Part shown: piece after piece, positions 118 through 17,737 of the stretch | Position numbering within the stretch: position 1 is the first letter of the stretch | Layout of the letters: every line of letters begins with the position of its first letter | Source of the DNA: Croceivirga sp. | Lineage (GTDB): Bacteria > Bacteroidota > Bacteroidia > Flavobacteriales > Flavobacteriaceae | Assembly (NCBI GenBank): GCA_028281025.1 | Contig: JANQKR010000034.1 | Location: 9,848-73,847 of the forward strand | Direction: 5' to 3' | DNA length: 64,000 bases | The notes under the pieces: model-generated | The model's input: only the letters and a program-made list of their open reading frames with translations | The model's database searches: none | What the model was told of the DNA's origin: nothing | Made by a program: the position numbers and the translations under genes

Positions 118-125
118 ATCCGACC

Positions 126-824: not shown

Positions 825-862
825 AAAGGGCAAACTGCGGTCTAGACCGCGGTTTGCCCTTT
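825..862. terminator. Bidirectional intrinsic terminator
   Basis: AAAGGGCAAACTGCGG-TCTAGA-CCGCGGTTTGCCCTTT hairpin between convergent genes, overlapping the lipB stop. Confidence 0.8.
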
Positions 863-1558: not shown

Positions 1559-1581
1559 CCTACAAAAATACGAAGCCCCAA

Positions 1582-2325
1582 TCAGTTCTCCAGTTCCACC
1601 TTTAGATCCATGGATTTTGGATTTTTCATCATATCCAAAAAGTTCACTTCATATACCATGGTCTTTCCATCCATGGAAAAGGTTGCACCTTCAACATTTA
1701 CACGCTTCACACGTTTTGGAAAATGGTACTTGAAGGTGTAGGTCGATCCGGAAAGAAACATTTCGGCACCCTGCAAACTATCCAATTCCTGTTCAAACAT
1801 AGCTTGATCCACAATGGTGATCTTTCGGGTAAAAGTGTTGCCCCTAAGGGCATAGTTTACCTGGGTTGTAGGCGTTTTGGATTTCATGGGGGAGGTGCTG
1901 TCCGGGCCAATGGAAGGTCCAAGTGAACCTGCTTCCTGAAAAGCGTTGAAGGCATCATTGACCTCCGACACTTTTTTAAACTCACTGTACATGTCAAAAT
2001 TCATCGTGCCCTTTCCATGGTCCACTACCATACGGATACTAAAAGGTTCCAGTTTTTTCAGTTTTGCTTGCTCTTCGGGAGACAATTGCGCTATACTATC
2101 TTTCTTTTCTTCCAATAAATCCCTGAAAACCAATGTAGAATCGATGGCTTTTTCGGTAGAAAGCGTTGAATCCATGGACGCTAACATGGCCATCATCTCA
2201 TTTCCATCAAAATGAATGTTTAATTTCCCGGAACCATCTTCATTAAAGTAAATCTCTTCAGTAAAATTACAGGAGGGCAACAGTGTGGAAAACACTAAAA
2301 TTCCCAAAAGTTTTGAAAAATTCAT
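1582..2325 (-). CDS. Hypothetical lipoprotein
   Basis: Lipobox LLPSC; CNFTEEIYFNEDGSG N-terminus of a conserved Bacteroidota family. Confidence 0.8.
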   Translation of the reverse strand: MNFSKLLGILVFSTLLPSCNFTEEIYFNEDGSGKLNIHFDGNEMMAMLASMDSTLSTEKAIDSTLVFRDLLEEKKDSIAQLSPEEQAKLKKLEPFSIRMVVDHGKGTMNFDMYSEFKKVSEVNDAFNAFQEAGSLGPSIGPDSTSPMKSKTPTTQVNYALRGNTFTRKITIVDQAMFEQELDSLQGAEMFLSGSTYTFKYHFPKRVKRVNVEGATFSMDGKTMVYEVNFLDMMKNPKSMDLKVELEN

Positions 2326-2477
2326 GGTTGGTCGAATTCGTTTTGTAAAGGTTGACTAGTTTGCAAGATAGACCATTCCGTCCTAAACCGCCAGACCCTT
2401 GAAGAATAAATATATCTGCTCTGCATACCAATGAATTCCATGGTCATTTCGTTATTTTTATATGAGTTTTTAGGTGT

Positions 2478-3239
2478 ATGATAAAAAAGAGCGTTGTTTT
2501 CCCATTACGGATGCTACTGCTGCTATGGGCAGTTTCTTGTTCCGATAGCGATACCCCCTTATTCGAATCTCCCATTACTGAACCGGAGGTCGGGGAACAG
2601 GGGGAAGCTCCAAGGGAGGTTCCCATGGGGGACAACGACTATTTTTATTTGGCCCTGGGAGATAGTTACACCATTGGTACTGGAATTGATCCCAAGGACA
2701 GTTATCCTTCACAGTTGACATTGACGTTAAACAATAGGGCCAATGTTTCGGTAAATCTTGAGGTTATTGCCACAAATGGTTGGCGTACGGACGACTTAAT
2801 ACGGGCCATTGAGGGGAAAAAAAGACAGGAATACAGTTTTGTCACCTTATTGATCGGCGTCAATAATCAATTTCAGGGCATACAGTTTTCGGTATTCCAG
2901 GACGAATTCAAAACGCTGTTGGACAGGTCCATAGCACTTGCTGAAAATCGACCTGGACAGGTCATCGTCATTTCAATCCCGGATTATACCTATTCGCCAG
3001 GGGGCAAAATTTATGACTTTGGAGGGACCACTTCGGACCAAATTGATGACTACAATACTTTTGCGCGGAACACTGCAATTGAAAGGGGTTCACGCTTCAT
3101 TGACATTACGGATATTAGCAGGGAAGGCCTTAAACAGCCCGATTTGATCGCCCCCGATAGCTTGCACTTGTCCGGGAAGGCATACAAACAGGTCATGGAA
3201 CGGCTGTTGCCGGCTTTCGATAGCATTTTTCCAAACTAA
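2478..3239 (+). CDS. SGNH/GDSL hydrolase family lipoprotein
   Basis: Lipobox AVSC; LALGDSYT, IGVNN and DSLH catalytic blocks. Confidence 0.92.
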   Translation: MIKKSVVFPLRMLLLLWAVSCSDSDTPLFESPITEPEVGEQGEAPREVPMGDNDYFYLALGDSYTIGTGIDPKDSYPSQLTLTLNNRANVSVNLEVIATNGWRTDDLIRAIEGKKRQEYSFVTLLIGVNNQFQGIQFSVFQDEFKTLLDRSIALAENRPGQVIVISIPDYTYSPGGKIYDFGGTTSDQIDDYNTFARNTAIERGSRFIDITDISREGLKQPDLIAPDSLHLSGKAYKQVMERLLPAFDSIFPN

Positions 3240-3250
3240 TCACGGCCATT

Positions 3251-3406
3251 TTAATTGGGATTGTTCAGAATAACCAAAGCGGCAATGACCCCTGGAACCC
3301 AACCGCACAGTGTTAAAAGCAGCACTATAAGAAAGGATCCGCACCCCTTTCCAATAACGGCCAGTGGCGGGAAAATGATGGCTAATAATACCCGTATAAG
3401 ACTCAT
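3251..3406 (-). CDS. YqaE/Pmp3 family small membrane proteolipid (51 aa, not in the ORF track)
   Basis: Manual translation MSLIRVLLAIIFPPLAVIGKGCGSFLIVLLLTLCGWVPGVIAALVILNNPN*, with the Pmp3 IFPPLAV and GWxPGVI motifs. Confidence 0.9.
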   Translation of the reverse strand: MSLIRVLLAIIFPPLAVIGKGCGSFLIVLLLTLCGWVPGVIAALVILNNPN

Positions 3407-3475
3407 GTTGATTTTGATTGATGTACCATATAGGTCTAAAAATAACGTAACTTGTTACAGAAAAAGACGATTTAA

Positions 3476-4504
3476 ATGCGATTTTCTTTTCTCCTTTTTG
3501 CCCTTTTGATCTTTGGGGCTTCCCAGGCCCAATTTCACTTTAAAGGACAGGTCTCCAAAGACTTTGCGAACAAAGAGGTCCATTTGTCCTTGGTGGAGGA
3601 TTATCGCAGGACTTCCCGGGTGTATTTGGACCAGGTTTTTCAGAAAACCGTTGCGGACTCCCTTGGCTATTTCTCCTTTTCGGGAAATGCAATTCCTGAA
3701 ACCAATCGGATTTATAGGATTCATGTGGATGCCTGTGAAAGCAGTACCGGTGATAAAAACCATATCATGGGTTTCTGTCCCGCTATGGAAAGCATACTGT
3801 TCATAGCAAACAACAGGGATACTCTGTCACTGCCTTTGGGAATGGACCAACAGGCTTTCTGCGAAATAGTTTCCACAAACAGCATGTCCGCTGCGTTGTT
3901 ACAATTGGATTTGCTTAAAGAAGAACTGATCGTGGATGTACTGGAACAGGAAACTGAGGTTGCCAAAAACATGACCTATAAAAAATGGATACGGCAATTT
4001 CAAATCACGAGTCTAAATACCGAGGAACCCTTGGCCGAATTGTATGGCTATAACTTTCTATCGAACAGGGAAAATGAAACCTATCCGTATTACCTTCAGG
4101 ATTTACAAGAGAGCCCTTATTATGAGGGGTTAAAAGGACGGTTGAAGGAAATCTATCCCAAAGCAAGCTTTACCCAACAGTTCCAAAAAGAGCTTAAAGC
4201 GGATAGGACCCTTATTGCTGATGAAGAAACCATTGGAGCCCGTTTTAAACTGATCCATATCCTAGATGTTGTCCTGGGAATTGCCGCCGTTCAAGGAGCC
4301 CTCTATTCCTATGGCAGATGGAAACGCACAAAAAACCAAAATCCCTTTGATGCGTTATCCCCACAGGAAAGAAAGGTGTTGAACGCCATTTTGGAAGGAA
4401 AGTCCAATAAAGAAATTGCTACGGATTTCTTCATTAGCCTAAGTACGGTAAAATCACATATCAACAGTCTTTACAAAAAACTGGGGATGTCCTCACGGGA
4501 CTAG
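3476..4504 (+). CDS. Membrane-anchored LuxR-type HTH regulator (signal peptide, periplasmic domain, TM, HTH); possibly truncated by a premature TAG
   Basis: C-terminal LSPQERKVL...GKSNKEIA..FFISLSTVKSHINSLYKKLG motif. Confidence 0.88.
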   Translation: MRFSFLLFALLIFGASQAQFHFKGQVSKDFANKEVHLSLVEDYRRTSRVYLDQVFQKTVADSLGYFSFSGNAIPETNRIYRIHVDACESSTGDKNHIMGFCPAMESILFIANNRDTLSLPLGMDQQAFCEIVSTNSMSAALLQLDLLKEELIVDVLEQETEVAKNMTYKKWIRQFQITSLNTEEPLAELYGYNFLSNRENETYPYYLQDLQESPYYEGLKGRLKEIYPKASFTQQFQKELKADRTLIADEETIGARFKLIHILDVVLGIAAVQGALYSYGRWKRTKNQNPFDALSPQERKVLNAILEGKSNKEIATDFFISLSTVKSHINSLYKKLGMSSRD

Positions 4505-4621
4505 ATCTTTTCCTATTACAAGGGAAAACATTGATTTCGACCTGGGTCTAGTCCCTATTTCCAACCCAATCCCCTTTCCCAAAAAGTGTTTCTTGGTGAT
4601 TTTCGGGAAAAACTGAAAATC

Positions 4622-5164
4622 ATGAAAAAACTTTTTTTCCTAATGAGCATTGCCGTTGTTTTTCAACTGAAGGCACAGACCACGTACCAAGGGATAGCAA
4701 CACCCAATGGGGACCCCTTTCTCCTGGGTAAGATAAGTAAGGCCAATTTAAAGGCATCACCGTACCAGACCTGGTATAAAAACAATTACGAGGCCTATCC
4801 CGTAGATGAAAATCTAGTGGCCCTATTTAAAAAGGAACTGAACCAGCACGAGGTTGTATTGTTCCTTGGTACCTGGTGCGGTGACAGTAAACGGGAGGTC
4901 CCAAGAATGCTTAAAATACTCGAAACGGCCAATTTTCCGGAAGAGCGACTGAAAATTGTAGCGTTGGACCGAAGAAAGGACAACTATAAAAAAGGGCTCA
5001 ATGGAGAGGAAAAAGGATGGGATATAAAACGTGTCCCCACACTGATCCTTCTAAAAAACGGAGTGGAGGCAAATCGCATTGTGGAACGACCTGTGGATAC
5101 CTTGGAAGAGGATCTGTTGGCTATCCTGACCAATTTGGACTACACACCCAACTACGGCAACTAA
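4622..5164 (+). CDS. Thioredoxin-family protein (WCGDS)
   Basis: Signal peptide; FLGTWCGDSKREVP and cis-Pro RVPT motifs. Confidence 0.88.
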   Translation: MKKLFFLMSIAVVFQLKAQTTYQGIATPNGDPFLLGKISKANLKASPYQTWYKNNYEAYPVDENLVALFKKELNQHEVVLFLGTWCGDSKREVPRMLKILETANFPEERLKIVALDRRKDNYKKGLNGEEKGWDIKRVPTLILLKNGVEANRIVERPVDTLEEDLLAILTNLDYTPNYGN

Positions 5165-5183
5165 GCCATGGTCCCATACTATG

Positions 5184-5219
5184 AATTAAAGCGCAAAAGT
5201 GTAATTTTGCGCTTTAATT
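5184..5219. promoter_or_regulatory. Perfect 15-bp inverted repeat containing the lysS -7 promoter element
   Basis: AATTAAAGCGCAAAA-GTGTAA-TTTTGCGCTTTAATT; TAATTTTG at 5202-5209 matches Bacteroidota TAnnTTTG. Confidence 0.7.
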
Positions 5220-5226
5220 TTTGGCT

Positions 5227-6918
5227 ATGCAATTATCCGAACAAGAGCTTGTACGACGAGAAAAACTGACCAAATTGAGGGAATTGGGCATTGATCCCTA
5301 TCCTGCTGCGCTCTATCCCGTTGATACCAACTCCAAAAACATAAAGGAAGGTTTTGAGGAAGGGAAAAAGGTAATCATCGCCGGTCGGTTAATGTCCCGT
5401 CGCATTCAGGGAAAGGCCTCTTTTGCAGAGCTTCAAGATAGTGAAGGACGTATCCAGGTGTATTTTAACCGTGACGAAATATGCCCTGGACAAGACAAAA
5501 CAAGCTACAACGAGGTCTACAAAAAACTGTTGGACATCGGTGACTTCATCGGAGTGGAGGGAACCCTTTTCACCACTCAGGTGGGGGAAAAAACGGTCAT
5601 GGTCAAAAATTTCAAGATTTTAAGCAAGTCCCTGCGTCCCTTGCCCTTACCCAAAGTGGATGCCGATGGAAAGGTCTATGATGAATTCAATGATCCCGAG
5701 TTGCGCTATCGACAACGTTATGTGGATTTGGTCGTGAATCCCAAAGTAAAGGAGACCTTTATCAAGCGTACCAAAATCACGAACAGTATTCGGGAGTTTT
5801 ATAATGAACGGGGGTATTTGGAAGTGGAAACCCCCATTCTTCAACCTATTCCCGGAGGCGCTGCGGCCCGGCCTTTCTTAACGCACCACAACGCGCTGAA
5901 CATTCCCTTGTATTTGCGCATTGCCAATGAGCTGTACCTAAAGCGTTTGATTGTTGGCGGATTTGATGGGGTATATGAATTCTCCAAAGACTTTCGGAAC
6001 GAGGGGATGGACCGCACCCATAATCCGGAATTTACGGTTATGGAACTCTATGTGGCCTATAAGGATTACCATTGGATGATGGAGACCACGGAGCAGCTCT
6101 TGGAAAAAGTGGCCAAGGATGCTGCAGGGGGCACAAAAATCACTGTTGGGGAAAATACCATTGAATTTAAGGCGCCCTATCCCAGGGTCCCTATTTTGGA
6201 GGCCATTAAGGAACATACGGGCATCGATGTTTCGGGTATGGGCGAAGCAGAACTCCGCGAAACGGCAAAAGGTTTGGAAATTGAAGTCGATGGGACCATG
6301 GGCGTGGGGAAACTGATAGACGAGATTTTTGGTGAAAAATGTGAACACCATTACATCCAACCCACTTTTATCACCGATTATCCCAAAGAAATGAGCCCAT
6401 TGACGAAAGCCCACCGCAGTAAACCAGGACTCACGGAACGCTTTGAATTGATGGTCAATGGTAAAGAGTTGGCCAATGCCTACTCTGAGTTGAACGACCC
6501 CATAGATCAGCGTGAACGTTTTGAAGAACAACTACGTCTTTCCGAAAAAGGGGATGATGAGGCGATGTTCATTGATCAGGACTTTCTTAGGGCCCTGGAA
6601 TACGGAATGCCCCCAACTTCTGGAATCGGAATTGGCATTGACCGTTTGGTGATGCTCATGACCGATAACTCCAGTATCCAGGAAGTACTCTTCTTCCCTC
6701 AAATGCGACCCGAGAAAAAGCAGGTAGAATTGACCGAGGAGGAAAAAATCATCATGGACATCCTAAAACCAAAGGGTGAAATGATTTTGGCAGAATTAAA
6801 AACTGCGGCCGGACTTAGCGGTAAGAAATGGGATAAAAGCACCAAAAACCTTTCGAAACTCGGATTGTTTCAAGTGGAAAAAAATGAAAATGGCCTTTTT
6901 GCAAAGACAAAACAGTAA
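5227..6918 (+). CDS. lysS: Lysine--tRNA ligase (class II) with C-terminal extension
   Basis: OB-fold anticodon domain, EVETP, FRNEG.D.THNPEFT and YGMPP.SG.GIGIDR motifs. Confidence 0.98.
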
Positions 6919-6965
6919 GTACTTTTCTTTCGGCATTGATAGAAATCCTTTAGCTTAGGGTCCCA

Positions 6966-8396
6966 ATGGAACTCAGCAAAAAAATGGGCCTGATTCTGGG
7001 GCCCCTGGTTTTTCTTGTATTTCTTGGTCTCCCTTTTGAACTGGTATCCAAAAAAGGGGATTTGGTCATTGCCGTAGCCGTTTGGATGCTCTTTTGGTGG
7101 ATTACCGAAGCGGTCTCCATTTCCGTTACCGCTTTATTGCCCCTGTTACTGTTCCCCTTGCTCAAAATTTTGCCTATTGCAGAGGTTGGGGCAAACTACG
7201 GTAGCCCCATTGTTTTTTTATTCTTTGGGGGCTTTGTTATGGCTTTGGCATTGGAGAAGGTAAATCTGCACAAACGCATTGCCTTGAATATTATCCGGTT
7301 AACGGGAACCACCCCAAACAAAGTGGTACTCGGATTTATGATTGCCACTGCCGCATTAAGTATGTGGATCAGCAATACGGCCAGTACCGTGGTTATGTTG
7401 CCCATTGCCCTTTCGGTCATTGGCCTGTTGATCAATGATGAGGATGGCTTCACCAAAAACGATCAAAATTTTGCACTTAGTGTCATGTTGGGCATTGCCT
7501 TCTCTGCCAATGCGGGAGGGATAGCCACAGTTATAGGCACGCCCCCCAATTCGGTAATGATCGGCTTGTTGGAAAATGAATATAACATCCAGATTTCCTT
7601 TTTAAAATGGATGACCTTGGGTGTTCCTTTCGCTGCCTTATTGATCGGTATTACCTATTTGGTCCTGGTCCGGTGGATGTTTCCCAACCGGGATTTGAAG
7701 TTCAATGCTTCCAAAGAGGTCATTCATGAGGAATTAAAAAAACTAGGGCCTACCTCTGGTAAAGAAAAAATGGTCTTGGTCATTTTTGGCATCACGGTTT
7801 TTCTATGGATTTTCCGAACACTTATCAATTCGGTTTTCCCAAAATTGGGATTGTCGGATACCATGATCAGCATATTTGCGGCCATTGCCCTTTTTGCGGT
7901 TCCCTACAATGCTAAAAGAGGGGAATTTATCATTCACTGGCAAGACACGTCCAAATTGGCCTGGGGGATATTGATTCTTTTTGGGGGAGGACTGGCATTG
8001 GCAAAGGGTATGTCCGTCAGCGGTATTGTGGATTTGGTGGCCAATGCGATTGCCCAAAGCGAAATCAGCATTTTGTTTACCGCTTCGCTCCTCATCTTAT
8101 TAATGTTGTTCATGACGGAACTCATGAGCAATGTCGCCCTGGTTGCCGTTTTAGCTCCGGTTGTGGCCGGTATTGCCATTGGTCTTGGCCTTCCCATCCT
8201 TTATCTCTTGATTCCCGTGACCATGGCCAGTAGTTGTGCTTTTATGTTGCCTATGGCCACGCCGCCCAATGCCATTGTTTTTGCCAGTGGTTATGTAAAA
8301 GTGCCCCAAATGGCCAGGGTTGGCATCGTCCTAAACTTAATATCCGTGGCCCTTTTAATTCTGGTCTTTCAATTTGTGGTCCCCCTACTTTTCTAA
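6966..8396 (+). CDS. SLC13/DASS family sodium-coupled anion transporter
   Basis: Polytopic membrane protein; SMWISNTAST, GTPPN, ELMSN and MLPMATPPN motifs. Confidence 0.92.
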   Translation: MELSKKMGLILGPLVFLVFLGLPFELVSKKGDLVIAVAVWMLFWWITEAVSISVTALLPLLLFPLLKILPIAEVGANYGSPIVFLFFGGFVMALALEKVNLHKRIALNIIRLTGTTPNKVVLGFMIATAALSMWISNTASTVVMLPIALSVIGLLINDEDGFTKNDQNFALSVMLGIAFSANAGGIATVIGTPPNSVMIGLLENEYNIQISFLKWMTLGVPFAALLIGITYLVLVRWMFPNRDLKFNASKEVIHEELKKLGPTSGKEKMVLVIFGITVFLWIFRTLINSVFPKLGLSDTMISIFAAIALFAVPYNAKRGEFIIHWQDTSKLAWGILILFGGGLALAKGMSVSGIVDLVANAIAQSEISILFTASLLILLMLFMTELMSNVALVAVLAPVVAGIAIGLGLPILYLLIPVTMASSCAFMLPMATPPNAIVFASGYVKVPQMARVGIVLNLISVALLILVFQFVVPLLF

Positions 8397-8445
8397 ACAA
8401 AAAAAGCCCAAAAACTGGGCTATGTATTGTGCAGCTGTCCAAATA

Positions 8446-9192
8446 CTACTCCTGTAGTTCGTCAAATTCCAATTTGGACAAACCTTCCGGCGATGTCTTA
8501 AAGTCGATGGGTATGGCAACTCCTTTCCTCACCACAAAATCGGTCATGACCAACTGTTGTTGGGAAAGCTTTCGCAGTGCATCGAAATTGGTAAATCCAT
8601 TATGGGCCAGGTAAAGCCGTTTCAGCTTTTTCAATTGCTCCATACCAAGGGGAATTGCTCCTTCCAAATCGTTGTTGGCCACTGCCAAAGTCCTTAATTG
8701 GGAGAGTTCATTGATTCCTTGGGGCAATTCACCCATAAACTTATTATTGTTTAAATTGAGTTCTTCAAGACGCGTTAGCTTACCAATGGTATTGGGGATG
8801 TTTCCGGCCAAAGCATTATCCGAAAGATTGATGGTTCTCAGGTTTTTCAATTTTCTGAACAATCCCGGAACTTTTCCCCCAATGGTGTTGTTGGACAAAT
8901 CCAGGACTTCCAAATGTCTTAGATTGCCAATGGTAATCGGAATCCTACCCTGTAAATTGTTGTTCGATAGATGTAGGCCCACTACCTTGCCATTTCTGAC
9001 CGTAACCCCGTGCCAGGTGGAAATCGGTTTACTCTGATCCCATTCGTTGGTCCATAAATGACCCTTGGTCTTCGCCTTTAACTCCAATAGGGCAATAACT
9101 TCACGTTGGCTGACCTCATTTTGCGCCATGAGCATGGGGAGGGTCAAACACACCATCAGTAGTAAGCAGAACCTGGATTTAAAAGTCTTCAT
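8446..9192 (-). CDS. Secreted plant-type leucine-rich repeat protein
   Basis: Signal peptide; WHGVTV cap followed by ~24-aa LxxLxLSxNxLxGxIP repeats. Confidence 0.9.
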   Translation of the reverse strand: MKTFKSRFCLLLMVCLTLPMLMAQNEVSQREVIALLELKAKTKGHLWTNEWDQSKPISTWHGVTVRNGKVVGLHLSNNNLQGRIPITIGNLRHLEVLDLSNNTIGGKVPGLFRKLKNLRTINLSDNALAGNIPNTIGKLTRLEELNLNNNKFMGELPQGINELSQLRTLAVANNDLEGAIPLGMEQLKKLKRLYLAHNGFTNFDALRKLSQQQLVMTDFVVRKGVAIPIDFKTSPEGLSKLEFDELQE

Positions 9193-9357
9193 AACAAATG
9201 TTTGATTTGGCGTAAAGCTGGATTGTCCCAAAATTCAGAAAGGGCGTGCTCTTAAACAATTAATTGTGGTATAACCGGACAAATTAGTTGATCAAACCGA
9301 ACAAAACTGAGGTCTGCCTTTCAGCAAGTACCGACAATTTTGGGAAAATGGGCATAA

Positions 9358-9389
9358 AAAAAGCCCCGACCGTACGGTCGGGGCTTTTT
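9358..9389 (-). terminator. Intrinsic terminator of the 2-repeat protein gene (perfect 32-nt palindrome)
   Basis: AAAAAGCCCCGACCGTACGGTCGGGGCTTTTT. Confidence 0.85.
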
Positions 9390-9421
9390 CACTAACTAAC
9401 TCTAATACACTTTATTGAAAT

Positions 9422-9721
9422 CTACTCTTTGTATGGATTAAAATCCTCTGGAAGATAATCCTTGGTTTCAAAGCCCAGGTCTATGGCATCTTCCTCAATA
9501 AAATTCAAACTCTTTATGGAAACGTCTTCCTGGTAGGGATCAAAACCTTCAGGCAAATAGTCCGAGGTTTCGAAACCAAGTTCCGTTTGTTGATCCAATT
9601 CAATATAATCCACGGAATCTATATTGAATTCCCCTTTTGTCGTTTCAGCCGATTTTGCACTTAACATGGGCAAGAACAGCGCTGCCACAAATGTTAAAAC
9701 AAGATATTTTTGATACTTCAT
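9422..9721 (-). CDS. Small secreted acidic protein with 2 LGFETxDYLPExFxPY repeats
   Basis: Signal peptide MKYQKYLVLTFVAALFLPMLSA; two internal repeats; own promoter and terminator. Confidence 0.8.
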   Translation of the reverse strand: MKYQKYLVLTFVAALFLPMLSAKSAETTKGEFNIDSVDYIELDQQTELGFETSDYLPEGFDPYQEDVSIKSLNFIEEDAIDLGFETKDYLPEDFNPYKE

Positions 9722-9995
9722 AACCGTCATTTTTAGTAATGGTTGACAAAGGTAATACGCTTAAAATTCAACTTTAGTATGCTTTTCAGTTTCGTTAACA
9801 GGCCCAAAAAAAACTGTAGGAAAAGTATTGTCAACAAAAGGATTGCCCCTTTATGGAGGTGGCATCATTAGCATTCCTTTTTTGCCAAGTTGGCAGCGTT
9901 TGGCCCCATTTTTTAACAACTACATTTCGTCGATTTTTTCGTTATTTTTTTGTTAATTCCCCGTATTGGACCCCGTCACCATGGGAAAAACAAAA

Positions 9996-10016
9996 ATCCC
10001 GGCGATTCGCCGGGAT
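9996..10016 (-). terminator. Intrinsic terminator of the 5-repeat protein gene
   Basis: ATCCCGGCGA-T-TCGCCGGGAT, followed by a T-run on the minus strand. Confidence 0.8.
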
Positions 10017-10062
10017 CCTTGACTAACTAACTCAAAAATTTGATAAAATGAAAACATCCTAC

Positions 10063-10800
10063 CTAGTTTGACCCTGCATAGGGATCAAAGCCTTTTGGGA
10101 GATACGTGGCCGTATCAAAACCCAGATCAATTTCTTCTTCCTCAATGTAGTTGATGGCACTTAGGGCAACCGTATTTGGAAAGGAATCAAAGTCTACCGG
10201 CAGATATTCCTTGGTATCCAAACCAAGTTCCCATTCCACCTTTTCCATATCCACGTAATGCAAAGTGTCTATATCAAAGTACACTTCGTAAGGATTAAAG
10301 CCTTCCGGAAGATAATCTTCGGTATCAAAACCCAGTTCCACTGTTTCCTCCTCCATATAGTTAACGGAGTTGATATCAAAAGTAGAAGCGTAGGGATCGA
10401 ATCCTTCCGGCAAATAGTCCCAGGTTTCAAAACCAAGGTCAACTTCGGTGTTATCTTCGATATATATTACGGAATTCAAATCGAAAAAGCTTTCATAGGG
10501 ATCAAATCCTTCAGGAAGGTAATCTCCGGTCTCAAAACCTAAATCTACCTCGGACTCCTCTTCAATGAAATCAATATCGTCCAAATTCAACTCATAAGTC
10601 TTGCTTTCCTCGTAAGTCCATACATAAGGGGAAGCTTCCTCAACTACATCGGCCTCAACAGTAAGGGCCGCAAAATTGTTCTCAAAGCTACGGTTGATTT
10701 CTTGACTGGCCTGAAAGACAGGAACCGCACTTTTTTGTTCTTCTGCTATGGGGCTACTGCTCATTAATAGACACCCATAAATTAATAATAACTTGTTCAT
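10063..10800 (-). CDS. Secreted acidic protein with 5 LGF[ED]TxxYLPxGF[DN]PY repeats
   Basis: Likely start MNKLLLIYGCLL; five ~35-aa repeats, paralogous to 9422-9721. Confidence 0.85.
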   Translation of the reverse strand: MNKLLLIYGCLLMSSSPIAEEQKSAVPVFQASQEINRSFENNFAALTVEADVVEEASPYVWTYEESKTYELNLDDIDFIEEESEVDLGFETGDYLPEGFDPYESFFDLNSVIYIEDNTEVDLGFETWDYLPEGFDPYASTFDINSVNYMEEETVELGFDTEDYLPEGFNPYEVYFDIDTLHYVDMEKVEWELGLDTKEYLPVDFDSFPNTVALSAINYIEEEEIDLGFDTATYLPKGFDPYAGSN

Positions 10801-11067
10801 TTTTCGATTGATTTGATGATTGATGTTAATGCTTATAAGACTGCTCAAATTTCCATTTGTTACAGTCGATCACTTCATTTTAACAAAACTTCAATACGCT
10901 CTTAGCACAAGTATAGTGGGCGTTTTGAGCCAAACCATCAATAAAATGCAGGATTCCCAAAGGTTAATATCGATCGGCAAAAAAAAATTTGTTAATAGGA
11001 TTTTAACACTTTTCTTAGGTAATTTTTTGGTTCTTTGAACGAATACACCATATTCAAATTAATCAAA

Positions 11068-13566
11068 ATGACGCAAAAATTGTTGGTGAGGATCGTAATC
11101 CTTTTCCTTTTTATGGGCTCATTTCAAACTTCCGAAGCCCAACTTTTCAAAAAAAAGAAGAAAAAAACCGAAACAAAGGCCCCAGAAAAACCTAAAAAAG
11201 GAGCCATTAAACCCTATGAAAAAGTAATTACCAAAGATGCCAAAACCGATGACGGCCTTTTTAAGGTACATCAGGTAGAGGACAAACACTTCTACGAAAT
11301 TCCGGATTCCCTATTTCAAAGGGAAATGTTGATGGTGAGCCGAATCTCCAAAACCGCCACGGGAATCGGTTTTGGAGGGGGAAAAATCAATACTCAGGTC
11401 CTACGCTGGGAGAAGAAACCAAAAAAGGTGTTGTTGCGCGTGGTCTCTTATGGAAACTATGCCGCGGATTCCCTTCCCATTCATGAGGCCGTTGTGAATT
11501 CCAATTTTGAACCTGTGCTTTTTGCCTTCGACATTAAAGCATTCAATAAAAAGGATTCCTTGAATCCGGCCACGGTAATCGAAATAGACCCCTTGTTCAC
11601 CAAAGATGTGAACCCTTTGGGTATGCCGGATAGGTTTAGGAAAAGATACAAAGTGAGTCGTATGGACGGGGACCGCAGTTATATTGAGTCCATAAAAAGT
11701 TACCCCTTGAATATTGAGGCACGTCATGTAAAAACCTACGCTGCTAAGGAACCCCCAAGCAATCAAAGCATGGGTTCAATTTCAGTTGAAATCAATAATT
11801 CCATGATCTTGTTGCCCGAAGAGCCTATGAAACGTCGCTATTTTGATGAGCGCGTAGGTTGGTTTGCCAGGGGACAGGTAGATTATGGCCTCGATGTCCA
11901 AAAGAGCAAGACGGTACGTTATTTGGATCGCTGGCGACTGGAAGTAAAGGATGAAGATGTGGAGAAATTTAAAGCCGGGGAATTGGTGGAACCCAAAAAA
12001 CAGATTGTCTATTATATTGATCGGGCCACACCCGAAAAATGGAGGCCTTACATTAAACAGGGCATTGAAGATTGGCAGGTAGCTTTTGAGGCCGCAGGAT
12101 TTAAAAATGCCATCATTGCCAAAGACCCCCCAACACAAGAAGAAGATCCCGAATGGTCGCCAGAGGATGTTCGGTATTCCGTGGTCCGCTACTTGGCATC
12201 GCCAATTCCAAATGCGAACGGGCCCCATGTCAGTGACCCGAGAAGCGGTGAAATTTTGGAGTCCGATATCAATTGGTACCACAATGTCATGTCGCTACTT
12301 CGCAATTGGTTCTTTGTACAGACAGCAGCTATAAATCCCGAGGCCCGAAGCATGGAGTTCAGGGATGAAATCATGGGACGCTTAATCCGCTTTGTTTCCG
12401 CCCATGAAGTAGGCCATACCATAGGGTTGCCACATAATATGGGTAGCAGTGTAGCCTATCCCGTGGATTCCCTGCGTTCGGCCACCTTTACCAAAAAGTA
12501 TGGGACCGCACCTTCCATTATGGACTATGCCCGCTTTAACTACGTGGCACAGCCCGGTGATGACGGGGTGGCCTTAATGCCCGATATTGGTCCTTATGAC
12601 AAGCATTCGATCAACTGGGGATACCGTCCCATTTTGGGGAAATCGGCAGAGGAGGAAAAACCCATTTTAAATGAGTGGATTTTGGAGTATGCGGATGATC
12701 CCATGTATCGTTTCGGCCATCAACAAGTAGGGGATGTCCATGATCCAAGTTCCCAAACGGAAGATTTGGGGGACGATGCGGTGAAAGCCAGTACCTATGG
12801 CATTGCCAATCTTAAACGTATAGTTCCCAGTCTTATGGAATGGACCACGGAAGACGGTAAGGACTATGAAGATCTAAAAACGATGTACGGTCAGGTTGTA
12901 AACCAATTTAGACGGTATATGGGACACGTTTCCAACAATATTGGCGGGGTTTATGAATATTATAAGACCGCCGATCAGGAAGGTGCCGTCTATACCCATG
13001 TCCCCACGGACCATCAAAAAAAGTGTATGGAATTTATCCAGACACAGCTTTTTGAAACCCCGGAATGGTTACTTGACCAGGAAATCTTCAACAAGGTACA
13101 GTATTCCGGTTCGGTAGAACGCATTCGGGCGCTGCAGGTCGGAACATTGAACAATATCATGCACTTGGGTAAAATGGCAAGAATCATTGAAAACGAAACC
13201 ATGAATGGAAGAGGGGCCTATGGGCTTTTGGAAATGATGCGTGATATGCGCCGAGGAATATGGTCCGAAACACGAAACGGAAGAAAAATAGATACCTACA
13301 GACGCAATCTACAAAAGGCACATATTGATCGTCTTGAATATTTGATGACGGCAGAAAACCAGAAAAAACAACCCGCACTTGGAGGTTACCGAAAATCCAC
13401 GGTCGTAAATACCAGTCAATCGGATATCCGTTCGGTGGCGCGTGCCGAATTGAACAATCTGAAACGGGACATTAGAAGTGGTCTTTCAAGAATTTCGGAT
13501 TCCATGAGCAGATATCACCTTCAGGATGCCCTGGAACGTATTGATATGATTTTGGACCCCAGTTAG
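11068..13566 (+). CDS. Zinc-dependent metalloprotease (Bacteroidota met-zincin, DUF5117/DUF4953-type)
   Basis: Signal peptide; HEVGHTIGLPHN zinc motif and SIMDY Met-turn. Confidence 0.93.
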   Translation: MTQKLLVRIVILFLFMGSFQTSEAQLFKKKKKKTETKAPEKPKKGAIKPYEKVITKDAKTDDGLFKVHQVEDKHFYEIPDSLFQREMLMVSRISKTATGIGFGGGKINTQVLRWEKKPKKVLLRVVSYGNYAADSLPIHEAVVNSNFEPVLFAFDIKAFNKKDSLNPATVIEIDPLFTKDVNPLGMPDRFRKRYKVSRMDGDRSYIESIKSYPLNIEARHVKTYAAKEPPSNQSMGSISVEINNSMILLPEEPMKRRYFDERVGWFARGQVDYGLDVQKSKTVRYLDRWRLEVKDEDVEKFKAGELVEPKKQIVYYIDRATPEKWRPYIKQGIEDWQVAFEAAGFKNAIIAKDPPTQEEDPEWSPEDVRYSVVRYLASPIPNANGPHVSDPRSGEILESDINWYHNVMSLLRNWFFVQTAAINPEARSMEFRDEIMGRLIRFVSAHEVGHTIGLPHNMGSSVAYPVDSLRSATFTKKYGTAPSIMDYARFNYVAQPGDDGVALMPDIGPYDKHSINWGYRPILGKSAEEEKPILNEWILEYADDPMYRFGHQQVGDVHDPSSQTEDLGDDAVKASTYGIANLKRIVPSLMEWTTEDGKDYEDLKTMYGQVVNQFRRYMGHVSNNIGGVYEYYKTADQEGAVYTHVPTDHQKKCMEFIQTQLFETPEWLLDQEIFNKVQYSGSVERIRALQVGTLNNIMHLGKMARIIENETMNGRGAYGLLEMMRDMRRGIWSETRNGRKIDTYRRNLQKAHIDRLEYLMTAENQKKQPALGGYRKSTVVNTSQSDIRSVARAELNNLKRDIRSGLSRISDSMSRYHLQDALERIDMILDPS

Positions 13567-13595
13567 TAAAAGGGGCACCCAGCAATCCATTTTTT

Positions 13596-13624
13596 AAGGG
13601 GCAAACGCAAAATTTGCCCCTTTT
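13596..13624 (+). terminator. Intrinsic terminator
   Basis: AAGGGGCAAA-CGCAAAA-TTTGCCCCTTTT. Confidence 0.75.
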
Positions 13625-13727
13625 ATCGCCAGTAACGATGTATTCACCTACAAAAATCATCCGTTGACAACATATTGAAAAAAGCATTCCATCGTTTTCG
13701 TAACTTTAATATCCCTAAATCCTACTT

Positions 13728-13910
13728 ATGAAAGCCTATAAAGTCAAAAGTCTAATCTATCTGGGTTGCTTTATCGTTGCCGCTGTGGTGTACTACCATA
13801 TTGAACAGGACCAAAAATATCAGAATTCCTTTTTAGCTTCCCAAACCGCACAATTGGAAGCCCAAGATCAGCCTGAGGAGGAAAAGAAAGAGGAAGTTGA
13901 CCTTAATTAA
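13728..13910 (+). CDS. Small membrane-anchored hypothetical protein (60 aa)
   Basis: One hydrophobic helix and an acidic tail; AT-rich 5' leader. Confidence 0.65.
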   Translation: MKAYKVKSLIYLGCFIVAAVVYYHIEQDQKYQNSFLASQTAQLEAQDQPEEEKKEEVDLN

Positions 13911-14005
13911 GGTACCCCTGTTAAAAGCTTCATAAATTACTTCACTGTCATTAAACCTTTATGATCGGTAACGGTCATAGGTGTAAATCAAAAACAGTTA
14001 ATATC

Positions 14006-14458
14006 ATGAAGTATGCAAAAGTGTTTGTGGTCATTGCCTTAATGTCCACAATAATCGTAAGTGCCCAGCAGCAAAGGCATTCTGGGGGCAAAGGTAAATA
14101 CTACAAAGAATTTACCGTAGAACAACTGGCCACCTTAAAAACCAAAAAAATGACCTTGGCCCTAGATCTATCCGAAAAGCAACAGCAAGAGGTCATGAAA
14201 TTCCATATGGCAGAAGTGGAATACCGCAAAACAAAAATGGAGGAACGGCAAGCCAAAAAAGAATCCGGCGAGTTAAAAAAACCAACCGCAGAGGAACGTT
14301 ATGCCATGGAGAATGCCAAATTGGACCGAATGATCGCACAGCAAAAACAGCTCAAGGAAATACTGTCGAACGAGCAATACGATCAATGGAAAAAAATGCA
14401 GCTGTATAGGCATTCGCAACAAAAACAAAAATCAAGAAAGGAAAGTAGAAGAGGGTAA
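14006..14458 (+). CDS. Secreted helical protein, Spy/CpxP- or DUF4890-like
   Basis: Signal peptide; MTLALDLSEKQQ and LKEILSNEQYDQW (LTxxQ-like) motifs. Confidence 0.75.
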   Translation: MKYAKVFVVIALMSTIIVSAQQQRHSGGKGKYYKEFTVEQLATLKTKKMTLALDLSEKQQQEVMKFHMAEVEYRKTKMEERQAKKESGELKKPTAEERYAMENAKLDRMIAQQKQLKEILSNEQYDQWKKMQLYRHSQQKQKSRKESRRG

Positions 14459-14476
14459 TGGTTTTTTGTTGATTGG

Positions 14477-14520
14477 AAAGCCCCGCACTCCCAAACCGAT
14501 GGGTAGTTTCGGGGCTTTTT
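14477..14520 (+). terminator. Intrinsic terminator with a long structured loop
   Basis: AAAGCCCCG...CGGGGCTTTTT. Confidence 0.7.
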
Positions 14521-14684
14521 CCTTTGTAAACGACCCTAAAACAGTAAACTCGTCTTGAGTTTACTGTTAAGCTTTTTATAATTGAGGTCATTCATCCATA
14601 AAAAGTGGCATTTCATCGTCATTGACAACATTACGCCATCTTCCCGGCGTACATACAAAAACGTTCATTTTAAATCTTAATGCA

Positions 14685-15488
14685 ATGAAAACAAGACAGA
14701 TGTTATCCATCCTTACCTTACTAGCCATCTGTTTGTTTACCAATGCCCAAGAAAAATTGCACTGTTCCTATGAGGACTGTGATTTTACAAAAGGCGAAGT
14801 TGTTTATCTTTTTGGGGACGATGTCCTGCTCCGTGAAGCACCCACTGTGGAATCCAAAATCCTTGGGAAACTGGACATTGGAACCCATATGGTCATCATG
14901 GAAAAACACAAAAACTCTTGGCCTTACAAGGGAATCGATTCCCATTTCTACAAGGTGGACTACAAAGGAACCGAAGGGTACATCCTTGGTGGTCTTATTG
15001 CTTTGGAGAAAAAAACGGTTCATGGGGTGACCCATCTCTTCGGTAGGGCAAAGTCCGCGCAGCAGGACTATTTACTGATTCGGACACTGAAAGGTGATGG
15101 AAAATTCACTGAAAAATCCGTTCGATTGGACAACCCCCAATTTTATCTTACCGTCCAGGGCAATAAAGGACTTTCGCAAATTGATGCCATGCTCTATGTA
15201 GATTACGTGGCGGAGGGTTGCGGTGTGGAAGGCGGTCGTATTTATTTCTTCCAAAAGGAGGATTCCCTTTACCAGGTAGCACGCCTTTCCCGGATTTTTG
15301 ATGCCGGTGTGTACGCTATCCAGGAGGAATTCATTTTTCCCGAAGATGCGGACGGGGTAGAAGGGAAAATCCGATACACCAAAGAATTGGCCGAATATTA
15401 TGACGATGCCGCCAATTGGGAAAAGAAAAGCCGTGAAAGCAAAGAGCTGATTTGGACAAACCATAGCCTTGGTCTGGCCCAACGGTAA
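14685..15488 (+). CDS. Secreted SH3-domain protein
   Basis: Signal peptide; VLLREAPTVESKILGKLDIGT...YKVDYKGTEGYI bacterial SH3 pattern. Confidence 0.8.
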   Translation: MKTRQMLSILTLLAICLFTNAQEKLHCSYEDCDFTKGEVVYLFGDDVLLREAPTVESKILGKLDIGTHMVIMEKHKNSWPYKGIDSHFYKVDYKGTEGYILGGLIALEKKTVHGVTHLFGRAKSAQQDYLLIRTLKGDGKFTEKSVRLDNPQFYLTVQGNKGLSQIDAMLYVDYVAEGCGVEGGRIYFFQKEDSLYQVARLSRIFDAGVYAIQEEFIFPEDADGVEGKIRYTKELAEYYDDAANWEKKSRESKELIWTNHSLGLAQR

Positions 15489-15745
15489 ATGATCCACTCT
15501 TATAAACGCAGAACTGGGGCAAGACCCCAGTTTTGTGTTGCACAAACCTACCCAACCTTCCGAAACCCAAAAAAAGGGTTTTCCCTGCTGCACCCCTTTA
15601 AGATTTCGGCTCGCCATAGGATAGCTACATCAATAGAACCCGTCTTGCGTTTGGAAAGGTGGTCATATTGATGGTTATGTTGGCAGTCGCTTTTGTACGC
15701 CATATTTCCTTTAACCCATTTTCAATCGTATCTTCATTTGTCAAA

Positions 15746-15905
15746 GAAGTGATTTAAACTTTTTGCGTTTAGGCGAAAATTAGGGATTTTTTGACCATTT
15801 GAAAGCTTTTTTGAGTTGCATAGCAGGGCTACGGAAGGAAAAAAAGAAGAAAAATGGGCAAAAAAGGACAATTTTTTAGCAAATGGAAAAAGTTTAAATC
15901 ACTTC
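15746..15905. repeat. Perfect 19-bp inverted repeat pair around a 122-bp segment (candidate inverton or MITE)
   Basis: GAAGTGATTTAAACTTTTT (15746-15764) and AAAAAGTTTAAATCACTTC (15887-15905). Confidence 0.85.
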
Positions 15906-15918
15906 AAAGTTAAAACCC

Positions 15919-16299
15919 ATGAACCTCAATCAAATTACGGCCCCCTCCTCAAATCTCTCCAAAACCATTCCTTTTTACCAAACTTTGGGACTCCGGTTAA
16001 TTGTTCATTCCGCTCCCCACTATGCCCGCTTTGTCTGCCCCAATGGAAATGCCACCTTTTCATTGCATCTGGTCAAGGAGCTTCCTAAAGGCGAAGGAAT
16101 TTATATCTATTTTGAATGTGATGATTTGGATACGCATGTAGAAGCGCTGGTTGAAAAAGGGGTGCATTTTGAAGAACTCCCCAACGATAAGCCATGGTTA
16201 TGGCGCGAAGCCCGACTAAAAGACCCGGACGGCAATCAATTGATTTTGTATCGTGCCGGGAAAAATCGGGTGAACCCCCCTTGGCGAATAAACGGATAG
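15919..16299 (+). CDS. VOC/glyoxalase family protein
   Basis: FYQTLGL, YFECDDLD and WLWREARLKDPDGNQL motifs. Confidence 0.92.
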   Translation: MNLNQITAPSSNLSKTIPFYQTLGLRLIVHSAPHYARFVCPNGNATFSLHLVKELPKGEGIYIYFECDDLDTHVEALVEKGVHFEELPNDKPWLWREARLKDPDGNQLILYRAGKNRVNPPWRING

Positions 16300-16450
16300 G
16301 CCTTAAAACCTATACTATCCAAATCAGTAGTTATTTTTATTGGTTCTTGAACCACCAAACCCATCCCAAGCACTTAAGACCATTTATTATGAAATGGATA
16401 TGAAAGGATACTAATGTCATTTCGAACCAAATCAGAAGCATGGGAAAGGC

Positions 16451-17653
16451 ATGAATCAATTCCCATGGCTTCATTACTTTAGTAGCCCTATGCAACAACG
16501 CAAACATATTCTCCCTACCATTGTAGTGGCCCAGTTTTGCTGTACCTCGTTATGGTTTGCCAGCAATGGGGTGATCGGGGAACTTGTCGCTAATTTTCAA
16601 TTGGGCAACAGTGCCCTGGGGAACTTAACCTCTGCTGTGCAGTTTGGTTTTATATCCGGCACGCTCATTTTTGCCCTATTGACCATTACCGATCGTTTTT
16701 CCCCTTCCAAGGTATTTTTTGTTTCCGCGCTATTGGGTGCCCTATTTAATTTTTCAATGCTATGGCCACATAACAGCTTGACCAGTCTTCTCATCTTTAG
16801 GTATTTCACTGGATTTTTCCTGGCAGGCATTTATCCCGTGGGGATGAAAATTGCAGCGGATTATTTTGACAAGGGACTCGGAAAGTCCCTGGGGTTTTTG
16901 GTTGGGGCATTGGTAGTGGGTACGGCCTTTCCGCATTTGCTCAAGGGATGGGGTGAGGCGGTGGCCTGGGAATCGGTCATTAAAACCACTTCCGGACTGG
17001 CCGTGTTTGGAGGATTGTCACTTTTCCTTTTTGTGCCCAATGGGCCGTTTCGTAAACCGAGTCAAAAGGTAGATTTAAAAGCATTTTTTAAGGTGTTCCG
17101 GCAAACGGATTTTAGGGCGGCGGCTTTCGGGTATTTTGGACATATGTGGGAACTGTACACCTTTTGGGCCTTTGTTCCCATACTCTTGGCAACTTATACA
17201 GACCTACACCAAGTCAAGGTATCCATAGCGATTTGGAGCTTTGTCATTATTGCCCTGGGAGGGCCGGCCTGCGTACTCGGGGGATACATTTCCCAAAAAA
17301 TGGGGGTGCGGAATACTGCTGGCACCGCTTTGTTCCTATCGGGCTGTTGTTGCCTATTGGTTCCCTTGGCATTCCTCCTGCCGTACCCAAGCCTTTTCTT
17401 GATTTTCCTCTGTTTTTGGGGCATGGTGGTCATTGCCGATTCGCCTTTGTTTTCTACCCTGGTAGCACAAAATGCCGAACCTCAGCTCAAAGGAACGGCA
17501 TTGACCATTGTTAACTGTATCGGCTTTGCCATAACCATTGTTAGTATCCAATTCATAGTTTACCTACAGACCCTTACGGCTTCCAATGGGTTATATCTTC
17601 TGCTGGCCATTGGTCCGCTGTTCGGCCTGATCTGCCTCTTTAACAAAAGGTAG
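16451..17653 (+). CDS. MFS transporter
   Basis: About 12 TM helices; TSLWFA, GIYPVGMK, GYFGHMWELY and ADSP motifs. Confidence 0.92.
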   Translation: MNQFPWLHYFSSPMQQRKHILPTIVVAQFCCTSLWFASNGVIGELVANFQLGNSALGNLTSAVQFGFISGTLIFALLTITDRFSPSKVFFVSALLGALFNFSMLWPHNSLTSLLIFRYFTGFFLAGIYPVGMKIAADYFDKGLGKSLGFLVGALVVGTAFPHLLKGWGEAVAWESVIKTTSGLAVFGGLSLFLFVPNGPFRKPSQKVDLKAFFKVFRQTDFRAAAFGYFGHMWELYTFWAFVPILLATYTDLHQVKVSIAIWSFVIIALGGPACVLGGYISQKMGVRNTAGTALFLSGCCCLLVPLAFLLPYPSLFLIFLCFWGMVVIADSPLFSTLVAQNAEPQLKGTALTIVNCIGFAITIVSIQFIVYLQTLTASNGLYLLLAIGPLFGLICLFNKR

Positions 17654-17737
17654 TTTTTAAATTGAATGTCATTCCTATCCCCATGTGCCACCCCGAGCTT
17701 ATTGAAGGAAATGTGACCTGGAAATGGTTATGGATCC

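Follow-up and report, generated by a model that had tools for sequence, protein, structure and literature searches.

The window analysed here is a stretch of 64,000 nucleotides from Croceivirga sp. (family Flavobacteriaceae, phylum Bacteroidota; GenBank assembly GCA_028281025.1, contig JANQKR010000034.1, positions 9,848 to 73,847 of the forward strand), and positions below are counted from its first letter. This work deals with two adjacent genes of its minus strand, designated REP5 and REP2, whose products consist largely of five and two copies, respectively, of an acidic module of about 35 residues; other members of the family are also referred to as REP. We characterized the two genes, their homologues and the genes that accompany them, including a sister branch in which REP precedes a sensor kinase and its response regulator.

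Two exported acidic repeat proteins and their family

The REP5 coding sequence (10063..10800, minus strand) encodes 245 residues and lies within an open reading frame listed as 10063-10848; translation probably begins at the ATG at 10800 (MNKLLLIYGC...), a start common to the homologues. A signal peptide of approximately residues 1-20 is followed by a variable acidic N-region of some 65 residues and by five modules, the last ending four residues before the stop codon. The repeat array spans 10078..10596 on the minus strand, as defined by alignment and by profile domains of 38-65 bits each, with the single modules at 10495-10596 (R1), 10390-10491 (R2), 10288-10389 (R3), 10180-10281 (R4) and 10078-10179 (R5), of which R4 is the most degenerate. 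The REP2 coding sequence (9422..9730, minus strand) encodes 102 residues from the ATG at 9730, or 99 from the ATG at 9721, and the majority of its orthologues begin at this second methionine (MKYQ, 9721), three residues further in. Its signal peptide comes first, the two modules lie at 9533-9634 and 9431-9532, and the protein ends two residues past the last PY. In both proteins the modules follow one another with a period of 34-36 residues around a near-invariant core, LGFDTxxYLPxGFxPY.

As read by eye, both N-termini are of the Sec type, with a lysine-containing start, a hydrophobic stretch and then PIA/EEQ or LSA/KSA, and nearly all homologues likewise begin with a Sec-type signal sequence. 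No lipobox ([LVI][ASTVI][GAS]C) was found at the end of either signal peptide; the cysteine at REP5 residue 10 falls within the hydrophobic core, and its position is not kept in the homologues. Nor does REP5 or REP2, each ending 2-4 residues past its last module, carry the C-terminal sorting domain of the type IX secretion system (T9SS; Por_Secre_tail). Aspartate and glutamate make up 26-29% of the residues, and the net charge of the mature proteins is -54 for REP5 and -18 for REP2. The first-pass annotation had described two co-oriented repeat reading frames with five and two modules, a near-invariant motif within an acidic repeat of about 35 residues, very acidic mature proteins and a family without a name, and all of this is confirmed by our analysis; the "short" N-terminal stretch also described there has to be corrected, given that mature REP5 has about 65 non-repeat residues ahead of its first repeat.

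A hidden Markov model (HMM) of the repeat was built from 377 units and searched against the six-frame translation of the whole 5.1-Mb assembly (genome G000, the source of the window). REP5 (E=1.6e-77) and REP2 (E=1.1e-30) were recovered together with only two further repeat reading frames, at C37:31891-32514 (four units) and C8:23440-23718 (one to two units). Tandem Repeats Finder detected no DNA-level repeats in the two coding sequences, which indicates that the units are old and are maintained at the protein level. Consistently, units at the same position are 65% identical across species, in comparison with 44% between positions within one protein; thus, the arrays are old and not in the process of being homogenised.

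Judged by its sequence, the family is new and matches no named one: REP5 and REP2 hit 0 Pfam-A families and only noise in NCBIfam (E>0.1), the best match of a 121-sequence profile among solved structures in the PDB reached only E=0.22, and there was no Pfam match to known calcium-binding repeats (RTX, EF-hand, dockerin, TSP3), the conserved positions being Leu, Phe, Tyr and Pro. A word-indexed search retrieved 392 homologues at E<=1e-3, every one unnamed or annotated as hypothetical. Further, a HMMER scan of 1.84 billion representatives with a 34-position unit profile yielded 330 clusters at 50% identity, the best 150 of which are all 54-303 residues long with 2-7 matched stretches. The family is thus built of repeats only, and the sole fusions found are three clusters of 303 residues (P0246, P0308 and P0311) in which two units are followed by a DUF3244-like region and a T9SS sorting domain; PF18962 occurs in these three alone among the relatives (P0246, 30.4 bits against a cut-off of 27). 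The distribution is restricted to Flavobacteriaceae, with 77 positives among 301 genomes sampled one per genus, and named hosts include Flagellimonas/Allomuricauda, Croceivirga, Croceitalea, Maribacter, Arenibacter, Eudoraea, Muriicola, Ulvibacterium and Euzebyella. A phylum-wide sample gave 5 positives in 351, four of them Flavobacteriaceae and the fifth at a contig end. The single match outside the family in the genome searches (G343) and a contig labelled "Balneola" look like binning errors, since they sit on very short contigs or at contig ends.

Conservation was assessed over 885 distinct units. Positions L27 (99%), F31 (99%), P28 (98%) and F21 (91%) are the most constant, followed by Y26, Y34, L19 and E12 (87-88%) and by Asx/Gly turn positions (D/N at 22 and 32, G/D/N at 30, P/A at 33); the near-invariant positions are hydrophobic, aromatic or proline, with no fixed set of carboxylate ligands. 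Divergent members retain a 28-residue core, I-x-x-Y/I-E-x-E-E-E-I-D-L-G-F-D-T-x-x-Y-L-P-x-G-F-N-P-Y-x-G-M, and the spacer between cores varies from about 6 to about 40 residues in these proteins. Because the core is kept while the spacer varies in this manner, the units would be strung as separate motifs along a flexible acidic chain and would not be elements of a packed repeat fold or solenoid. AlphaFold2 models of REP5 (121-sequence alignment; predicted local distance difference test (pLDDT) 63, predicted template-modelling score (pTM) 0.19) and of REP2 (35-sequence alignment; pLDDT 67.7, pTM 0.21) contain zero strands; the REP2 model has a helix in the signal peptide only, and 3-4-residue helical turns occur at DYLP, with local confidence of about 80 confined to the motif cores.

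Kinase-regulator cassettes in a sister branch

Related loci were gathered with a 34-residue repeat alignment, and neighbour counts were taken over 200 loci of the repeat family. In all five divergent members that were looked up, REP lies directly upstream of, and on the same strand as, a histidine kinase gene (His_kinase, PF06580, LytS/YehU type), and wherever the contig reached far enough, the gene after the kinase encodes a Response_reg+LytTR regulator. A scan of metagenomes placed the kinase after REP in 32/79 loci, and in 25/51 of the loci with at least 1.5 kb downstream. Overall, the kinase/regulator cassette is present in 40/200 loci, and in Flavobacteriaceae genomes that also hold a locus like that of the window, 9 of 20 secondary REP sites are of the cassette type. 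A rho-independent terminator usually lies between REP and the kinase gene.

The REP-linked kinases have four predicted transmembrane helices connected by loops of only 10-24 residues, with no periplasmic domain. In a maximum-likelihood tree that included the 19 paralogues of the window genome, they fall into exactly two clades of 38 and 5 distinct sequences (support 100/98 and 100/99), which indicates that REP has been coupled to two distant LytS/LytTR lineages.

The promoters of cassette-type REP genes carry two to three direct repeats at a period of exactly 21 nt, with a consensus of approximately GnCGTTTCAC in the large kinase clade and GTTCATCGCA in the small one. Direct repeats of such geometry are textbook LytTR sites, as known for AgrA, ComE and PlnC/D. 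A strict box pair is present in 22/39 unique upstream regions of the cassette type (type II) versus 3/212 of the window type (type I), and in 21 of the 22 cases the second box starts 42 nt before the TAnnTTTG -7 box. When loci of up to 12 kb were scanned on both strands, the box pairs in cassette loci were located upstream of REP only, which makes REP the specific local target of the kinase and regulator beside it. On the evidence of the boxes, it is in this branch their dedicated output.

In the small clade (L120:8787-9374, L123, L131), the gene between REP and the kinase gene encodes a DUF3244-like protein that is secreted and bears the signature of a T9SS sorting domain. A protein of this kind is also the one fused to two REP modules in the three clusters mentioned above, a Rosetta-stone hint; taken together, both arrangements suggest that the DUF3244-like protein and REP act together at the cell surface.

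The window itself has none of these elements. The window genome has four REP genes and approximately 20 LytS/LytTR pairs; none of these pairs lies near a REP gene, and none belongs to the large REP-linked clade. No LytTR-type box pair was found upstream of REP5, REP2 or the downstream leucine-rich repeat (LRR) gene, and no CGTTTCAC pair precedes any promoter in the window genome. A single GTTCATCGC pair exists there, away from REP, on contig C13 before an ATP-binding cassette (ABC) transporter. The LytS/LytTR pair encoded at this site (G000 C13:7631-10564) is sister to the small REP-linked clade, and the boxes, GTTCATCGC-N12-(A)TTTATCGC, lie between the regulator gene and the downstream transporter genes (ATPase and permease), which suggests that the C13 pair drives this transporter.

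The window-type locus and its transcripts

REP5 is flanked divergently by a gene for a met-zincin with DUF5118, DUF5117 and DUF4953 domains (11068..13566, plus strand; Pfam E=1.7e-126), and REP2 is followed by a secreted plant-type LRR protein (8446..9192, minus strand; about 248 residues from MKTFKS; Pfam LRR_8, E=2e-22). Across 80 loci from genomes, another 30 at the genus level and several contigs that were looked up individually, the genes stand in the order DUF4890-like(-), [met-zincin(-)], REPn(+), [REPm(+)], [LRR(+)], SLC13 symporter(-), with the bracketed genes variably present. Across genera the flanking genes are 77-92% identical versus 40-70% for REP, and the locus looks like an old syntenic slot with varying content. 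Recurrent neighbours in the 200 loci are SLC13, the met-zincin, the DUF4890-like gene, aspartyl-tRNA synthetase, the kinase, the regulator, the LRR gene, an alpha/beta hydrolase and FtsE. The met-zincin adjoins REP divergently in 90/200 loci, is missing from Eudoraea-type and other loci that retain REP beside the DUF4890-like gene, and occurs in no cassette-type locus. In 15/200 loci, which form a minority clade, REP is followed by the LRR gene. Similar secreted LRR proteins occur in 197/301 genomes of the family regardless of REP (present in 77/301), and only about five of these are orthologues that adjoin REP; since LRR paralogues are so widespread, a comparison of phylogenetic profiles is uninformative as a test of partnership. 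A literature search on DUF4953 returned no papers, and the literature on LytTR in Flavobacteria yielded nothing concerning the repeat family.

Each repeat gene has its own putative rho-independent terminator, as read from the sequence. That of REP5 (9986..10033, minus strand) consists of a GAGTTAGTTAGT box at 10022-10033 followed by a G+C hairpin and a T-run at about 9986-10018, and that of REP2 (9356..9402, minus strand) of an identical 12-nt box at 9391-9402 followed by a hairpin and a T-run at about 9356-9387. The GAGTTAGTTAGT box has seven exact copies in the 5.1 Mb, when about 0.6 would be expected by chance; further G000 sites are C24:215655, C29:107647, C37:501088, C37:760705, C6:190158 and C31:250058, plus near-copies. 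Most copies lie a few bases 5' of a terminator hairpin behind unrelated genes, several of them SusD-like, and the box is also present behind REP genes in other genera (L086, L186). It was therefore rejected as a REP-specific element, as it precedes terminators behind SusD-like and other genes too, and it looks like a general 3'-end element of the lineage.

Upstream of REP2, the sequence TACCTTTG (9747..9754, minus strand, 24 nt upstream of the ATG) matches the Bacteroidota -7 box TAnnTTTG and is kept in the orthologous upstream regions. When about 50 orthologous upstream regions were compared, two conserved features emerged in the stretch from which REP5 and the met-zincin gene diverge (10801..11067), namely a leader (AGTCTTATAAGCATnnCATCAATCAnnAAAtCAATCnAAAA-ATG) and a CTGTAACA element upstream of REP5. 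A 9/10 direct repeat, TTTGTTCGGTT / TTTGTCCGGTT, with 22-nt spacing was noted at about 9270-9305 on the minus strand, approximately 90-113 nt before the start of the LRR gene. Conservation of this repeat is limited to L001, the closest genome, and it is thus probably no general regulatory site.

The two other repeat genes of the window genome are found among exporter genes. The C37 paralogue (207 residues, four modules) is encoded between an HlyD-type adaptor and an ABC ATPase (G000 C37:29273-38927), in an operon of the order OEP-HlyD-REP-ABC_tran-DUF2807-MacB_PCD/FtsX beside a sigma-54-type kinase/regulator pair, and Flagellimonas sp. 389 (L047) shows the identical REP insertion in an OEP-HlyD-ABC-DUF2807-MacB/FtsX operon. 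The C8 paralogue (92 residues; G000 C8:22693-30228) belongs to a same-strand run of TetR, ABC (555 aa), HlyD, TolC, YitT, a 121-aa protein, REP and a thioredoxin-like protein, and the core of this arrangement is kept in the genome of another genus (L210). Furthermore, one cassette locus runs on into TolC and resistance-nodulation-division (RND) genes (REP-HK-RR-...-TolC-RND, with HK and RR the kinase and the regulator). The link of REP to TolC-type exporters, which involves few loci, is suggestive.

Expression was assessed from assembled contigs of sequencing runs, which report presence and not quantity. In the RNA-type runs X17/18, X21 and X23, the sole contigs on window positions 1-20000 lie within REP5; X17/18 also contain REP2 contigs, and in them REP5 and REP2 account for the sole contigs over positions 1-40000. 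The coral metatranscriptome X25 yielded a sole contig, 10663-10813, which corresponds to the 5' end of REP5 plus 13 nt of leader. The contigs of REP5 and REP2 in RNA runs are 98-100% identical to the window. Run X6 was dropped as expression evidence, because its patchy contigs extend across the whole 20 kb. The possibility, raised with the first-pass annotation, that the genes are not expressed can thus be set aside. Transcription of the window copies in coral- and dinoflagellate-associated samples is apparently strong, and their transcripts probably rank among the most abundant of the region. With regard to habitat, a coral metagenome run contains a fraction of 0.99 of the sampled words of the window, and the closest named genome is that of Flavobacteriaceae bacterium GF1 (94-99% amino acid identity for neighbouring genes), a strain that makes zeaxanthin and comes from the phycosphere of a dinoflagellate endosymbiotic in corals (PMC6974559, PMC11812308).

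In run X8, which derives from a relative of about 95% identity, a contig over 7-19998 skips 163 bases between 15740 and 15904, and four other contigs begin or end inside 15740-15905, one of them in the opposite orientation. This pattern is consistent with heterogeneity of the population at 15740-15905, where the segment would be invertible or variable.

Possible roles of the repeat family

We tentatively favour, at somewhat less than even odds, a reading in which these genes define a new protein family with ties to envelope signalling, whose members act outside the cytoplasm as multivalent binding or "bait" proteins. REP5 and REP2 would be Sec-exported, hyper-acidic, intrinsically disordered proteins with a beads-on-a-string design, each bead being a module of 28-35 residues composed of an acidic strand-like segment (I-x-Y/F-I-E-E-E..) and an aromatic/proline clasp (L-G-F-D-T-x-x-Y-L-P-x-G-F-D/N-P-Y). 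The modules might serve as independent short recognition motifs that become structured only on a partner, and the whole protein as a multivalent binder or bait outside the cytoplasm for a conserved ligand or envelope component. In the cassette branch, REP is the first gene of a series formed by REP, a terminator, a LytS-type histidine kinase with four transmembrane helices and a LytTR response regulator. If Bce-type and Com/Pln-type modules are a guide, the REP product may also be the stimulus of the kinase, or bind or present this stimulus, and may thereby feed back on the kinase either as a ligand (Com/Pln-like) or as a target that is also a co-sensor (Bce-like). The window genes represent a stand-alone version, monocistronic with their own terminators, free of boxes and of an adjacent two-component system. 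Given that in relatives the same kind of gene is linked by boxes to an adjacent membrane sensor, the role of the family probably lies in sensing envelope conditions or in responding to them. A bolder proposal, which we regard as rather unlikely, is that the family constitutes the signal, or the signal-presenting part, of an undescribed Bacteroidota signalling system, in which a Sec-exported precursor would be sensed whole or cleaved by the four-helix LytS-type kinases and autoinduced through LytTR boxes, with the window copies as constitutive emitters in the algal or coral phycosphere.

Several points weigh against the multivalent-binder reading. It is built on gene context and sequence features, and the signal peptides were judged by eye. 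The window genes have neither a two-component system nor boxes, and consequently their link to signalling is drawn only by homology to the sister branch; moreover, the window genome lacks the main clade of REP-linked kinases, which for this reason cannot be the universal partner. A weak AlphaFold2 model is no proof of disorder, as a fold dependent on cations would look alike, and only X25 is labelled as metatranscriptomic, the RNA nature of the other runs being guessed.

In design, the family is similar to tandem linear-motif proteins and to product-kinase-LytTR cassettes, both of which are known, but it occurs in a new phylum and has a Sec-exported multi-module product and LytS-type kinases. 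The comCDE, plnABCD and agrBDCA systems of Firmicutes share with the sister branch the order of a small exported product, a membrane-embedded kinase and a LytTR regulator, as well as direct repeats of 9-10 bp at a period of 21 bp before the product gene. Unlike the products of those systems, REP carries a Sec signal peptide instead of a double-glycine leader or AgrB processing, and neither a C39-ABC exporter nor an AgrB gene is among the recurrent neighbours of the 200 loci. REP is also a protein of 100-300 residues with 2-7 near-identical motifs rather than one short variable peptide, the kinase is of the LytS/YehU type (PF06580) and not HPK10, the host is a Gram-negative member of Bacteroidota, and the window genes are entirely without a cassette. 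In Bce-type modules, which rely on intramembrane-sensing kinases, the regulated target (an ABC transporter) doubles as co-sensor. The REP-linked kinases likewise appear short-looped, the adjacent regulated gene encodes an extracytoplasmic or envelope-acting product, and the sister system on C13 of the window genome has its boxes before an ABC transporter; on the other hand, the REP target is a soluble acidic repeat protein, the regulator is of the LytTR and not the OmpR type, and co-sensing by REP is our inference.

Among the alternatives, a multi-copy signalling-peptide precursor was considered, in which the chain would be cut between modules after Sec export, perhaps by the DUF4953 met-zincin in window-type loci, and the released aromatic and proline-rich peptides of 17-30 residues would be sensed by LytS-type kinases with positive feedback, as in comCDE, plnABCD and agr. 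We consider it improbable, but still a serious rival. The order of precursor, kinase and LytTR regulator, with boxes solely before the precursor and an intervening terminator, is the three-component layout of Gram-positive bacteria, the kinases have four transmembrane helices and no periplasmic domain, and a secreted metalloprotease gene is the divergent neighbour in 90/200 loci. With its signal peptide, its pro-region and its tandem cores in this order, REP is similar to multi-copy pheromone or hormone precursors such as yeast alpha-factor and the multi-domain CLE and CEP precursors of plants, which also have acidic spacers. Unlike those precursors, however, REP has no dibasic or other recognisable processing sites, its spacers are conserved too, and its units are position-specific instead of homogenised, with R4 decaying. 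Pheromones diversify together with their receptors, whereas the REP core is near-invariant across genera and both kinase clades; conserved cleavage sites are not evident, a peptide of 2-4 kDa would not freely cross the outer membrane, and the window genome lacks both a linked kinase and the main kinase clade. The protease, proposed in the first-pass annotation as the releasing enzyme, proved frequent but dispensable, being missing in several genera that retain REP. Thus, a pure pheromone precursor is not favoured, since the motif barely varies, the units are not homogenised and the main kinase clade is missing from the window genome.

We assign a similarly low probability to a role as a cation buffer or a sponge for cationic compounds, which would bind Ca2+, Mg2+, Fe3+ or cationic antimicrobial peptides and polyamines in the envelope with low affinity and high capacity, and which envelope stress would induce in the cassette branch. 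The 26-29% of Asp+Glu, the net charge of -54 and the conserved E12/E14 and D/N at 22 and 32 agree with such a function, as do the paralogues within or beside TolC-type exporters (C37 and Flagellimonas sp. 389, C8 and another genus, and the REP-HK-RR-...-TolC-RND locus) and the sister system of G000 with boxes before an ABC transporter, which suggests protective outputs. Calsequestrin-like proteins, biomineralisation proteins and RTX-type Ca2+ repeats share the extreme Asp/Glu content, the repetitive build and the lack of a predicted fold in the ligand-free state; nevertheless, REP has no sequence relation to them, and its invariant positions are aromatic or proline rather than Gly/Asp ligand positions. 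The strongest constraint acts on Leu, Phe, Tyr and Pro rather than on carboxylates, no known Ca2+-binding repeat is matched, charge alone needs no near-invariant motif of 16 residues, and the adjacency to exporters involves few loci.

Considerably less likely is that the repeat proteins serve as ligands of the adjacent plant-type LRR protein or as decoys or inhibitors of the adjacent met-zincin, both of which had been put forward in the first-pass annotation. LRR solenoids of this type bind extended peptides, the LRR gene lies behind the repeat genes on the same strand in the window and in about 14 other loci, and the met-zincin is a common divergent neighbour. Yet the LRR idea largely fails on synteny, with adjacency in 15/200 loci and LRR proteins in 197/301 genomes, most of them without REP; the met-zincin is absent from several REP loci and from all those of the cassette type, each repeat gene has its own terminator, and genomes without either neighbour were observed to keep the motif unchanged. 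A ribosomally synthesised and post-translationally modified peptide (RiPP) with enzymatically cross-linked or otherwise modified Tyr/Pro cores is the least credible of all: the multi-core architecture and the conserved Tyr, Pro and Phe would offer modification sites, but no maturase family (radical-SAM, YcaO, P450, lanthionine synthetase/LanM or other) recurs near REP in the 200 loci, Sec signal peptides are atypical of bacterial RiPP precursors, and REP5 and REP2, judged by eye, are not cytoplasmic leader-core peptides free of a Sec signal. Of the multi-core precursor put forward in the first-pass annotation, the strict RiPP form is not supported, given the missing maturases and the Sec signals, and the REP-kinase-LytTR cassettes lend indirect support to the broader notion of a secreted product that is signal-like.

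Few kinds of regulator are as numerous in Flavobacteriaceae as the LytS/LytTR two-component pairs and, to our knowledge, almost none of these pairs has a known input or output. The cassettes provide one clear output of these systems, an exported repeat protein under box control that has been recruited by two separate kinase clades, and they constitute a directly testable handle on what LytS/LytTR systems sense. We know of no established case of peptide- or protein-mediated signalling in Bacteroidota, and the repeat family raises the possibility of it. With 330 clusters, so far all annotated as hypothetical, the family merits an entry in profile databases. Among the transcripts of a close relative of GF1, those of the window copies seem to be some of the most visible, and because GF1 is a phycosphere strain, the repeat family may matter for life in the phycosphere.

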